DNA of 64,000 nt, taken from a virus. Under the pieces are notes generated by a model. That model was not told the origin of the DNA. It ran no database searches and worked only from the letters and a program-made list of their open reading frames with translations. The stretch spans positions 64,001-128,000 of the IMG/VR virus record IMGVR_UViG_3300043773_002546; one strand, given 5' to 3'. Shown here in pieces: positions 80 to 61,791 of this stretch. A program made the translations under genes and the position numbers. Position 1 is the first letter of the stretch; the number at the start of each line of letters is the position of its first letter.

Positions 80-1153
80 TTGAAAGAAACTATGACTATG
101 ACAGCTCCTGGTTCCGTAGCGGTCGATCCGCTTAACCCCATGCTGTACAACCTCCTGGAGCACAAGTTCGGGGAGGTAAAGATCGCCAATGAAGGCGTCT
201 CAGCCGATGTCCAGGAGCTGCCTGATCCGTTCCACCCGGGACGCACAATCACGCACTCCAACAGCTGGGGCGAGTATTACCGGATTAACTGTCCGTTTTG
301 CAACGACGTCGGACACAAGCTCTGGATTAACCATCTTTACGGGGCCGAGTATCACAACGGTCGGCGCACGAACCTGCACCGCGCCATTTGCTACAAAAAC
401 GACTGTCTTTCCGCGCCTGGCCGCCGCGAACAGCTCGAGATGCTCGTCTTTGGCCCCGGGCGCCCGCTGGTTAAGAAAATGCCTATTAAGATGGCCACCC
501 AGGAGTTTACGCCCCTGGCGGCCTCTCCGCCGGGTGAAATTATCCCAGTGGACACGCTCTACGAAGGACACGCGGCTCTGGAGTATCTTCGGCAGAGGAA
601 CTTCGACCCGGGCGAACTGACCAGGGACTTCGGCATCGGGTTTTGCACCCGCACAACTCAAGAGCGCGTTCGCATCGCCGCCGGGCGGCTCTACATCCCT
701 ATCAGCTTTCACGGCAAACTTGTGGGCTGGCAGGCTCGCGCTGTTGGTGACGGCAACAAGAACCTCAAGTACTTCAACTGCCCGGGCACCAGCAAAAGTC
801 GCATGCTCTACAACTACGACCGCGCCAGCCAACAGCCGTTTGTAATTGTCGTTGAGGGTGTGCCCAGCGTGTGGCGTCTCGGCGCGGCTGCTGTGTGTCT
901 CTTCGGCAAAACGATGAGCCTTTGGCAGCGGACCACGATCAGCACGACTTGGTCTGGCAAGCCGGTGTTCATGATGCTCGACAACGACGCCCGCGGTGAG
1001 ATGGAACAGGCCATTCAACTTTTGAAACAGGCGCAAGTTAACGTCATTCCTGTGTATTTGCCCGATAAGCGCGATCCGGCGGATTACCCGCGGGAAGAAA
1101 TAATCTCATTGATATCAATGACCGGCGCCGCCGCCGGGCACGCACCGTTTTAG
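80..1153 (+). CDS. DNA primase (DnaG-like, Zn finger + TOPRIM)
   Basis: N-terminal CPFC...C zinc finger; GRLYIPI...LVGWQAR core; TOPRIM VVEG and MLDND motifs; upstream of the DNA polymerase. Confidence 0.85.
   Translation: MKETMTMTAPGSVAVDPLNPMLYNLLEHKFGEVKIANEGVSADVQELPDPFHPGRTITHSNSWGEYYRINCPFCNDVGHKLWINHLYGAEYHNGRRTNLHRAICYKNDCLSAPGRREQLEMLVFGPGRPLVKKMPIKMATQEFTPLAASPPGEIIPVDTLYEGHAALEYLRQRNFDPGELTRDFGIGFCTRTTQERVRIAAGRLYIPISFHGKLVGWQARAVGDGNKNLKYFNCPGTSKSRMLYNYDRASQQPFVIVVEGVPSVWRLGAAAVCLFGKTMSLWQRTTISTTWSGKPVFMMLDNDARGEMEQAIQLLKQAQVNVIPVYLPDKRDPADYPREEIISLISMTGAAAGHAPF
1106..1121. promoter_or_regulatory. Dispersed palindrome copy 1 (TCATTGATATCAATGA)
   Basis: Perfect 16-bp palindrome near the primase 3' end, about 40 bp upstream of the next start. 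Confidence 0.8.
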
Positions 1154-1162
1154 GAGCAACCC

Positions 1163-1522
1163 ATGGGTAACCTGACCACCATGACGATCTACAACGACGG
1201 GATCGATCAGATCCCCAAGCACGCGCAGGAATTTGCGGACGCCCTGTATGCGGCGGCGCAGTCCACCGACCCGCAGACAATCCGCGTGGGCAATCACTGG
1301 AATCTAGTGAAAGTTCATCCTTTTCGGCATGCGGACACCAGCACGATCTACGTGCACATGGGCAACACGGTTTGCGAAATGAGCGGCTGGAGCAAAGAGA
1401 CTCGGCGCCTCATGCGTGAAAGCCCCGCGTTCTTCGAGAAGATGCTTAACTTCATGCGCGGCGTGGTGGAAAACCTGAGCGCTGATTTCAAGAAACTCCA
1501 AGAAGAGAAAGTAACCGCATGA
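1163..1522 (+). CDS. Hypothetical protein
   Basis: AGGAG RBS; ATGA overlap with the polymerase start. Confidence 0.75.
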   Translation: MGNLTTMTIYNDGIDQIPKHAQEFADALYAAAQSTDPQTIRVGNHWNLVKVHPFRHADTSTIYVHMGNTVCEMSGWSKETRRLMRESPAFFEKMLNFMRGVVENLSADFKKLQEEKVTA

Positions 1523-60815: not shown

Positions 60816-61463
60816 GTGATTGCCACGGACGCGCGATACGAAACAGTCACAGTTACGTTCACAGACGAAGAGCGAGAGCTTATTGCTCATCACGCCGAGC
60901 AGGCCACGCTGCCGGTCGGCCGGTCTAAGATCTTTTGCGGCGACCAGGAAAATCTCGACCGGCGCGAGTTTGAGCGCAACGAAAACCAGCACACCGGCAT
61001 GGCCTGTGAAGCGGCGTTCTACAAGTGGGCCGCGCCGCTGGGTTCGGGCGACTTCGCGGCTTTTTTGGCCAACCGTGAGCTGCGCAACTCCGACAAGTTC
61101 ACGGGCGACAAGGGCATAGACTGCGTTCTGCCCGAGAACCTGCGCGTGGACATTAAAGGCTCCGAGCCGCAGGCTGGCAAGAGCCTGGACGTGTACACGG
61201 CGCTGAACTTGCATTTGACGCACGAGCGCGACAAGTCCCTGGCAGAAATACAGGACATCGCCTACGTGTTTGCCGTGACGCAGCGAGAACTGTCTGCGCC
61301 GTGCCGGGCGCCGAAATTTGTAATTCTTTCAGGCTGGCTCTGGGGCCGCGAGCTGTATGGCCGTGAAGATAAGAAATCTTTAGCGGGCTGGTCGGCCAAA
61401 GGCTGGTCATTACACAGAATGCACGAGTTTCCGGGCGTTGCGCAACTTGCAAACTGCGCTTAA
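60816..61463 (+). CDS. Hypothetical protein, PD-(D/E)xK nuclease-like
   Basis: G..CEAAF; GDKGIDC...VDIKG; GAGGAG RBS. Confidence 0.55.
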   Translation: MIATDARYETVTVTFTDEERELIAHHAEQATLPVGRSKIFCGDQENLDRREFERNENQHTGMACEAAFYKWAAPLGSGDFAAFLANRELRNSDKFTGDKGIDCVLPENLRVDIKGSEPQAGKSLDVYTALNLHLTHERDKSLAEIQDIAYVFAVTQRELSAPCRAPKFVILSGWLWGRELYGREDKKSLAGWSAKGWSLHRMHEFPGVAQLANCA

Positions 61464-61509
61464 AATCGCGGTCGCTGGCATTAATTATTCGCGCAGTCAC
61501 GGAGGACAC

Positions 61510-61791
61510 ATGCGGGAGAGACGCAGGGAGGCGGTTCGACACTGGCGCCGCTCGCTCCACGCGGATGCGCCGAGTCGTGAAAAGTACCTGCGGAAGCGCG
61601 CGGTCGCATCGCCCGCGCTTCGCACTCCATCGGACAGCCGGAGTGCCGGGATGCTGCGGTTTGATATCAAATCGCGCTTAACGCGGGTTGCTGGGTTTCC
61701 AACGCCGTCCGAGCGCCTCCTTCGCCCCAACGCAACACGAGCACAAGCAGAGCACGAGCGGCTCTGCTGCCCGCGCCCAGCCCGTTTTTGA
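61510..61791 (+). CDS. Arg-rich hypothetical protein
   Basis: GGAGGA RBS before ATG 61510. Confidence 0.5.
   Translation: MRERRREAVRHWRRSLHADAPSREKYLRKRAVASPALRTPSDSRSAGMLRFDIKSRLTRVAGFPTPSERLLRPNATRAQAEHERLCCPRPARF
61656..61675. promoter_or_regulatory. Dispersed palindrome copy 16 (GCGGTTTGATATCAAATCGC)
   Basis: 20-bp palindrome with one mismatched pair. Confidence 0.72.

Follow-up and report, generated by a model that had tools for sequence, protein, structure and literature searches.

The window analysed here is a stretch of 64,000 nucleotides (nt), bases 64001-128000 of a 197,309-bp IMG/VR virus record (IMGVR_UViG_3300043773_002546; 59% G+C; genome label G000) of an uncultured phage, and both the window and the rest of the genome carry many copies of a GATATC-centred palindrome with the consensus CTCAWTGATATCAWTGAG, in which W stands for A or T. 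The palindrome is enriched, is under selection at the level of DNA and is evenly spaced; its position is conserved in a sister lineage where it is re-spelled, its two arms vary independently, and the array occurs without any detected ParB-like protein. We propose, at roughly even odds (a probability of about 0.5), that the palindromes are docking sites of a dimeric, phage-encoded DNA-binding protein and form a roughly even array, in which selection would hold the density at about one per 5-6 kb throughout the chromosome and a number of sites would double as promoter-proximal operators.

The record is 96% complete by the CheckV estimate. DNA of this phage is held by 20 sequencing runs from lake or freshwater metagenomes, among which no RNA run is listed.

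Occurrence and enrichment of the palindrome

The 8-mer TGATATCA occurs 14 times in the window (at 1110, 9185, 13965, 23945, 27783, 31768, 36909, 38980, 40889, 44428, 47261, 49592, 53894 and 61662), whereas 100 dinucleotide-preserving shuffles yielded 0.32 on average and 3 at most. An earlier note on this DNA had listed 14 copies, and all of them were recovered; its coordinates refer to the start of the longer motif, 2-6 nt upstream of TGATATCA. The note's further description also held, namely that A or T flanks each side of all 14 copies, that the best copies, which proved to be those at 31763-31780 and 44423-44440, are perfect 18-mers, and that two degenerate copies exist (AAGATATCAA at 54593 and TTAATATCAA at 58204), to which we add a variant, AAGATATCTA, at 50875. 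The whole 197-kb genome contains 31 copies of TGATATCA and 40 of WWGATATCWW, ranging from 7.5 kb to 194 kb, and under a third-order Markov model this word family is the top-scoring one among 8-, 9- and 10-mers. Elsewhere in IMG/VR the exact 18-mer was found in four other contigs, one copy in each, and the whole records of these four showed no enrichment relative to a reversed-pattern control.

Two other repeated words, AACACCGCC (21 copies, all on one strand) and GTGAGACCGG (8 copies), were set aside as signals because they are codon-level protein repeats in genes for fibre-like and collagen-like proteins (window 44529-49570 and G000 600-900). The word TTAACGC was noticed by eye close to several of the palindromes.

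Selection on the DNA, placement and spacing

According to our own gene calls (246 in G000, of which 243 are on one strand), six of the window copies lie in genes, three provide a stop codon with the TGA of the motif and five are intergenic; the corresponding figures for the 31 copies in the genome are 17, 4 and 10. Five of the six in-gene copies in the window are read in the frame CTC-AWT-GAT-ATC-AWT-GAG, which encodes L-N/I-D-I-N/I-E when full, and one is read in a frame giving SLISM, while over the genome GAT-ATC is in this first frame in 15/17 and the S-L-I-S-M frame is used in 2/17. A codon-aware shuffle, which the earlier note had suggested, was carried out by permuting synonymous codons within each gene, leaving the protein and the codon usage unchanged. 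Shuffled G000 retained 15.5 +/- 1.2 copies as compared with 31 observed, and 14 of those retained are the unshuffled copies that are not wholly in genes; the enrichment therefore survives, with 17 in-gene copies seen and about 1.5 expected. In G001, the closest relative of this phage, the equivalent word AGATATCT was seen 30 times in genes where about 2.3 were expected. Together with the re-coding of orthologous codons described below, these data support the view that selection acts on the DNA rather than on the protein.

Although non-coding DNA makes up only 7.1% of the genome, 14 of the 31 copies are not wholly in genes, a six-fold non-coding enrichment (P = 7e-9). The in-gene sites lie 36-1130 nt from the end of their gene and have no bias toward either end.

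The sites are also evenly spaced. The coefficient of variation (CV) of the gaps is 0.55 for the 42 sites of G001, a value reached in 0 of 5000 random placements, and 0.66 for the 40 WWGATATCWW sites of G000 (P = 0.005), with both short and long gaps under-represented in these two genomes. In two more distant relatives, G003 and G005, the CVs are about 1 and the spacing looks random.

Related phages and re-spelling of the array

Cultured relatives were not found: 7.9 kb searched at the nucleotide level against 50,697 phage records gave no match, and no cultured phage has a DNA polymerase more than 25% identical. IMG/VR holds 28 contigs with a DNA polymerase 56-74% identical to that of the window, several of them about 200 kb long with terminal repeats, and three whole relatives were assembled, so that four genomes (G000, G001, G003 and G005) could be compared. 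In G001, TGATATCA is at background level and AGATATCT (42 copies, 30 of them in genes; consensus A-W-A-GATATC-T-W-T) is the top word of the genome; across 11 genomes AGATATCT is present 42 times in G001, 17 times in G011 and 2-11 times in the others. The two words, T-type in G000 and A-type in G001, differ in having T or A at +/-4, and the outer CTC arms are found in one lineage only.

The sister lineages amount to a natural experiment, in which the same array, largely in the same places, is spelled differently at defined positions. For nine of the 12 testable intergenic sites of G000, G001 has a counterpart in the same position, and this is always A-type. Among in-gene sites, the orthologous codons of G001 contain GATATC in 5 of 21 alignable cases, with flanks of the G001 type, and re-coding is illustrated by CTCAATGATATCAATGAG in G000 (LNDINE) as against GGGAAAGATATCTATTCC in G001 (GKDIYS), where the amino acids fit each lineage's word. 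The clearest re-spelling is in a non-coding element of about 290 nt, in which TTTGATATCAAA is replaced by AAAGATATCTTT in G001 with the flanks almost unchanged.

Closer relatives were identified through homologues of two window proteins, namely contigs L077 and L079 (86-88% identity), L081 (64%) and L082 (55%), and all four have T-type sites at the same places. The site is thus specific to the lineage, and its retention at orthologous positions in relatives, by which the earlier note had proposed to judge it, is seen in these closer ones. A further contig, L083, is A-type and encodes a 58% identical homologue of the nuclease gene 60816-61463. Contigs from four sequencing runs were compared with window positions 30001-50000 and showed no joints, ends or variants at sites; being essentially identical to the window, they are uninformative about strain-level turnover, nicks and transcripts.

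G003 and G005 have a weak excess of WWGATATCWW, nearly all in genes and randomly spaced, and no intergenic system. Over-use of the codon pair GAT-ATC is about 2-fold in each of the four genomes, where the pair ranks only 22nd-135th of some 2,900, and because ordinary codon-pair bias can explain much of their weak, randomly spaced signal, G003 and G005 were not counted as bearing the array. Elsewhere in the family, the G012 lineage (L021, L029 and L032) has 1 GATATC in 23 kb and 4 WWGATATCWW in 205 kb, where its relatives have 6-18 and 10-52, and this depletion looks like restriction-type avoidance of an EcoRV-type hexamer.

The sites of the window are as follows, P1 being a promoter motif described in a later section.

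1105-1122: palindrome CTCATTGATATCAATGAC, in-gene, SLISM frame
9180-9197: palindrome, in-gene; the orthologous codon retains GATATC in G001, G005 and G003
13960-13977: palindrome CTCAATGATATCAATGAG, encoding LNDINE; the same codons in the G001 ortholog read GGGAAAGATATCTATTCC
23940-23957: palindrome over the stop codon ahead of the thymidylate kinase gene; same place in G001 (TAGATATCTA), L081 and L082
27778-27795: palindrome, in-gene; kept in the T-type relatives L081 and L082
31763-31780: perfect 18-mer over a stop codon, centred 30 nt ahead of the CTAAAT box in the promoter of gene 31871-32422; L081 and L082 alike
36904-36921: palindrome, intergenic, with a start codon 21 nt further on; kept in L081
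38975-38992: palindrome, its centre 9 nt before a P1 CTAAAT box; the orthologous G001 site is TAGATATCTA
40884-40901: palindrome, in-gene, DUF6321 protein
44423-44440: perfect 18-mer over the stop codon of an SNF2-type helicase gene
47256-47273: palindrome TTTGATATCAAA, in-gene, fibre-like protein
49587-49604: palindrome, intergenic
50875-50884: variant AAGATATCTA, intergenic
53889-53906: palindrome, intergenic; same place in G001 (TTGATATCTT) and L077
54593-54602: variant AAGATATCAA, intergenic; same place in G001, L077 and L079
58204-58213: TTAATATCAA, a decayed site, since the closer relatives L077 and L079 carry an intact CATTGATATCAA there
61657-61674: palindrome TTTGATATCAAA in a highly conserved non-coding element; the same column in G001 is AAAGATATCTTT

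Symmetry of the site

At every position from +/-4 to +/-12 the complementarity of the two arms equals the product of the marginal base frequencies, and at +/-5 each arm has A or T whether or not the two bases pair, as CTCAATGATATCAATGAG illustrates. Compensatory change between the arms, the mark of a hairpin or cruciform, is therefore not seen at these positions. Because the arms vary independently, half-site reading on duplex DNA is indicated rather than a hairpin, and the palindrome behaves like a two-fold-symmetric duplex recognition site, in keeping with the protein-binding site proposed in the earlier note. The indifference to A:T or T:A at +/-5 and the flexible ATAT centre suggest that the site may be read through shape or the minor groove, with bending. 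The likeness to FNR half-sites pointed out in the earlier note is merely descriptive, as the half-sites abut and the 4-bp spacer that defines an FNR site (TTGAT-N4-ATCAA) is absent.

Promoters beside the sites

A bipartite motif, CTAAAT-N15-GGCATAT(T), here called P1, is conserved in the intergenic DNA of G000, G001, G003 and G005. Its -10 region reads GGCATAT(T/C), it is often preceded by an intrinsic terminator and a TAGCTATCAG box, and Pfam matches to Sigma70_r3 and Sigma70_r4 identify a sigma-70-like phage protein. P1 is likely to be the promoter of the phage's own sigma-containing RNA polymerase. The copies in G000 are:

16919-16946, plus strand: P1 (CTAAAC-N15-GGCATAT), palindrome not nearby
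31802-31829, plus strand: P1 (CTAAAT-N15-GGCATAT), predicted promoter of gene 31871-32422
38993-39020, plus strand: P1, adjoining the site at 38975-38992
G000 5545 and 164002: further P1 copies

At three of these five promoters the CTAAAT box follows the centre of a palindrome by 9, 9 or 30 nt (P = 0.006 given the density of intergenic sites), and the difference of 21 nt corresponds to two helical turns. The layout of site and promoter before gene 31871-32422 is kept in L081 and L082, once with symmetric changes in the arms (CCCATT...AATGGG), and that at 38975 is kept in G001 with G001's own word. Most P1 promoters of G001 have no site and most sites are distant from any promoter.

Candidate readers

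Two genes of the window were considered as encoding the protein that reads the palindrome, and in the tests run these two short genes are the only candidates that track the array.

31871-32422, plus strand: candidate reader 1, a 183-aa Myb/HTH-like protein with two predicted three-helix helix-turn-helix (HTH) units
60816-61463, plus strand: candidate reader 2, a 215-aa protein with a PD-(D/E)XK nuclease fold and invariant E65, D102 and D112-x-K114

The first of these was one of two candidates put forward in the earlier note, and it stands: it has a predicted Myb/HTH-like fold, occurs in the lineages with the array only and has a conserved palindrome before its promoter. Using AlphaFold2 (AF2), the protein was modelled with a predicted local distance difference test score (pLDDT) of 74 (85-93 for residues 1-50 and 61-90, and 66 at 51-60), and the model contains two tri-helical HTH units that are Myb/homeodomain-like. 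Its structural matches are weak (Foldseek E above 0.4; VIA-align Z of 6.3 or less), although nearly all are to DNA-binding proteins, specifically Myb/SANT, homeodomain, CENP-B, Cbp1, GcrA, and the HTH of resolvases and small terminases. Fourteen relatives with 55-100% identity were found in T-type contigs. A profile of the protein detected full-length relatives in G000 and G001 only, among 11 genomes, and the G001 copy is syntenic, 27% identical and matched by hhalign with a probability of 97.4%. The C-terminal stretch of about 60 residues (approximately 116-183; window 32216-32419) also matches short open reading frame (ORF) stretches in G002, G004, G005, G010, G011 and G014, and so appears from sequence to be a shared small module.

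The other candidate of the earlier note, gene 9811-10740, did not hold up. It encodes a DUF1016/YhcG-type nuclease with relatives in G003 and G005, as deduced from its absence from the list of genes confined to G000 and G001, and it does not track the array.

The AF2 model of the second protein listed above has a pLDDT of 88, and its motif residues are invariant in 17 relatives. Its best Foldseek rows are PvuII, HincII, BglI and EcoRV (E 0.05-0.8), whereas VIA-align places I-Ssp6803I first (Z 7.3), with Hjc resolvases at Z 5.9 and NhoI, DpnI, PvuII and EcoRV at Z 4.7-5.8; a PD-(D/E)XK protein with an intact motif co-occurs with the array, with structural matches that are weak and include resolvases. 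A homologue is present in G001 alone of 10 relatives, and also in the contigs L077 and L079 (T-type) and L083 (A-type). A relative with 48% identity belongs to the replication module of a small, unrelated contig of a temperate phage, in which GATATC palindromes are absent, and for this reason the protein may be a general recombination nuclease. A sequence search of the PDB gave no meaningful match for either candidate.

Readers of known types were also looked for. A six-frame search for ParB_N (PF02195) at E <= 10 found none in G000, G001, G002-G005 or G012, whereas the control gave matches in 11 of 14 reference genomes. Nearly the whole set of predicted proteins was scanned with Pfam and PHROG, which revealed no ParB, no Xre-, Arc- or LexA-type regulator and no HU, and no DNA methyltransferase family was found in the Pfam scans, seven genes that span locus borders being outside the scan; readers of the Noc, SlmA and MatP type did not turn up in the general Pfam scans either. 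Neither an integrase nor a repressor was detected in G000. Three sets of matches were rejected as readers. Those to HTH_38, GerE and HTH_20 belong to 62362-62946, an HTH-HNH homing endonuclease gene lacking relatives in G001, G003 and G005; those to PHROG 'DNA binding protein' belong to the MazG-like gene 58368-58682; and that to PHROG 'transcriptional regulator' belongs to a 65-aa gene outside the window, probably a CsrA homologue. The first of these is

62362-62946: free-standing homing-type endonuclease with an N-terminal HTH (HTH_38/GerE-like) and a C-terminal HNH motif

Proposed mechanism and alternative explanations

In the mechanism that we propose, a two-fold-symmetric (dimeric) phage protein would recognise the sites on duplex DNA, each half-site being CTCAWTGAT. 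The sites would occupy non-coding gaps where these are available, and elsewhere proteins would be re-coded to fit. A subset stands at fixed, helically phased distances before CTAAAT-N15-GGCATAT promoters, where the bound protein probably tunes transcription, and the tuned genes would include 31871-32422, the reader's own likely gene. The Myb/HTH-like product of that gene, and not a ParB, would be the likeliest reader; if the palindromes are docking sites at all, its identification with the reader is tentative and less probable than that some other protein is responsible. When the specificity of the reader drifts, the whole set of sites would follow, giving TGATATCA in the lineage of G000 and AGATATCT in the sister lineage. 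As to the role, our guess is a marking or architecture of the whole genome combined with local control of promoters, with a logic like that of KorB and OB. A bolder form of the proposal, which we consider doubtful, is that large lytic phages label the entire chromosome with an evenly distributed private word, that in this family a small Myb/HTH-type protein and not a ParB clamp reads it, possibly with the PD-(D/E)XK nuclease, that word and reader co-evolve and that sister phages are mutually unreadable. If true, the array would serve self-identity or genome architecture, and this would bear on co-infection, recombination and replication.

Several observations weigh against the docking-site proposal. 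The reader is not pinned to one gene, as 35 genes are common to G000 and G001 and missing from both G003 and G005; moreover, G000 and G001 are mutually closest, so that one evolutionary event may account for the co-occurrence. The structural matches are weak for both candidates (Z of 7.3 or less), and in G001 the promoter of the 31871-32422 homologue is not preceded by a palindrome. In G000, the exact 8-mer taken alone (31 copies) is only marginally even (CV 0.73, P = 0.05), and half of the sites are deep in genes, where control of promoters is impossible as a role.

The main rival, which we regard as unlikely, is that the sites are programmed cutting or nicking sites of the PD-(D/E)XK nuclease 60816-61463, and that evenly placed breaks feed recombination-dependent replication, the ends being worked on by SbcCD, RecA-like and resolvase proteins of the phage. 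The modelled fold and its invariant catalytic-type residues are consistent with this, as are best Foldseek rows consisting of blunt-cutting type II enzymes, which act as dimers on palindromes, the homing endonuclease at the top of the VIA-align matches, and the restriction of the gene to G001, L077, L079 and L083; wherever the gene was seen, a conserved palindrome follows it at a distance of about 200 nt, and SbcC/SbcD-like, RecA-like, RuvC-like and endonuclease VII-like proteins are encoded. However, all the matches are weak and Hjc junction resolvases score like restriction enzymes, so that the protein is perhaps structure-specific, and its relative in the temperate phage contig is found without the palindromes. 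A fixed spacing of sites before promoters is not expected of cut sites, and some 30 double-strand cuts would be hard to square with packaging of a whole genome. It is improbable that a relationship with DNA modification or a host factor maintains the word, as has been suggested for iterated palindromes of the HIP1 type; a methyltransferase would then target it, or a host regulator exploited by the phage would bind it. GATATC is a classic type II target, and the depletion in the G012 lineage puts it under restriction-type pressure somewhere in the family; against this, the methyltransferase that such a relationship would call for is missing from the Pfam scans, the selected unit of 12-18 bp exceeds the targets of restriction-modification, and restriction-modification predicts avoidance where enrichment and even spacing are observed. 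A host factor would require the hosts of sister phages to have a regulator that differs exactly at the switched positions.

The GATATC core resembles the CATAT(T/C) -10 part of P1, a sigma-70-like protein is encoded and the sites are enriched in non-coding DNA, all of which could indicate a promoter-type or sigma-related role, in which the palindrome would serve the phage's own RNA polymerase as a bidirectional start or pause signal. We hold this to be distinctly improbable, as the in-gene sites have no bias toward gene ends, the sites are not preceded by a CTAAAT-like box at P1 spacing, and a symmetric start would produce antisense RNA in a genome with nearly all its genes on one strand; G003 and G005, furthermore, have P1 yet no array. 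Very improbable is the suggestion that the sites are centromere-like anchors for an actin-like filament of the volactin family that segregates or positions phage DNA. It draws on a Volactin-matching protein encoded 1 kb beyond the window, which is present in both T-type and A-type contigs:

L073:1003-2004 (G000 129003-130007): actin-like protein, Pfam Volactin E = 6e-64

By blastp, however, there is no relative in G001, which has the strongest array, and G003 and G005, which have none, possess one that is 76% identical; known actin-type partition sites are single clusters and not dispersed. Scarcely any weight can be given to the idea that the sites are single-strand hairpins, cruciforms or RNA stem-loops acting as terminators, processing sites or priming signals. 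The 18-mer could fold as a 7-bp stem with a 4-nt loop, and within 61497-61785 a stem is predicted whose pairing is kept by the G001 change, but the arms lack covariation and position +/-5 is indifferent to pairing, the G001 version yields only an A/T stem of about 4 bp, and no consistent T-run follows the sites.

Comparison with known dispersed arrays

The novelty that the earlier note claimed for the array was too strong, as arrays of this kind have been published for Cluster O mycobacteriophages, in which a 17-bp dyad repeat, TGTTCGGNNNCCGAACA, is present in 34 copies, about 40% intergenic and not tied to promoters, and for which the authors predicted a dimeric binding protein, with a role other than in the initiation of transcription (Cresawn et al., 2015; PMC4351075). 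Of the published systems this one is most like the docking sites that we propose: here too, tens of near-identical dyad-symmetric sites (more than 30) run through the whole genome, in and between genes and mostly off promoters, with only 3 sites adjoining a P1 promoter. The differences are an unrelated phage family and host, a genome of about 70 kb there and 197 kb here, and the lack of a central spacer here. To what was described for Cluster O, the present array adds spacing that is even, selection at the codon level and a re-spelling of sites that keep their positions in sister lineages. Genome-wide dyad-repeat arrays of phages have thus been known since at least 2015, without an assigned reader or function, and relative to known arrays the present one is ParB-less, has a specificity switch at conserved positions and has two reader candidates.

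The IncP plasmid RK2 carries about a dozen OB sites. In the KorB-OB system of this plasmid, a dispersed palindrome is placed both at promoters and far away, and one protein reaches many genes (PMC11790492). This is the closest system with a known mechanism and resembles the present one in having a short palindrome, a 13-16-bp site, dispersed over the whole replicon. KorB, however, is a CTP clamp of the ParB family, and G000 and six relatives have no detectable ParB_N, so that sliding is not implied for the array of G000. The stoperators of Cluster A mycobacteriophages (L5 gp71) provide another case of tens of operator-like sites throughout a genome (PMC4351075), but they are asymmetric, oriented with transcription and serve a temperate repressor, unlike the symmetric sites of G000, where neither integrase nor repressor is detected.

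The sites of parS/ParB, Noc-NBS, SlmA-SBS and MatP-matS are dispersed palindromes of 12-16 bp, often in genes, that are read by dimers. Their sequences differ from that of the G000 palindrome, and the G000 sites span the whole genome rather than one domain.

Non-coding elements and other gene content

The non-coding element of about 290 nt at 61497-61785 lies between the nuclease-like gene and a ferritin/Dps-like gene. It is 81% identical in G000, L077, L079 and G001, while the neighbouring proteins are about 50% identical. The structure predicted for the element by RNAalifold contains 12 compensatory pairs, and Rfam gave no match. The element is also spanned by an open, Arg-rich frame of 97 codons.

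G+C-rich terminator hairpins with T-runs, followed by the conserved TAGCTATCAG box, were observed at window 38900-39260 (G000 102900-103260), and the same arrangement is present at G000 82740 and 165361, and in G003, G005 and G001. At 38859-39516 there is no ORF between P1 and a second terminator, which lies about 210 nt downstream, and Rfam has no match; from this layout the segment may be a small RNA gene.

The window also encodes four tRNAs (Lys, Glu, Met and Asn) at 34001-34073, 37568-37640, 50904-50977 and 62281-62354, and a tmRNA at 37987-38335 that scores 113 bits in Rfam and bears the tag GAYAPALAA. A CsrA-like regulator (L069:8048-8245) and several MazG-type pyrophosphatases (window 58368-58682, others outside the window) are encoded by the phage. 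Its nucleotide genes include a dATP/dGTP diphosphohydrolase N-terminal domain, dCMP deaminase, and thymidine and thymidylate kinases, and a UDG-like domain is fused to the DNA polymerase; this gene content may point to an unusual nucleotide pool or to base modification.

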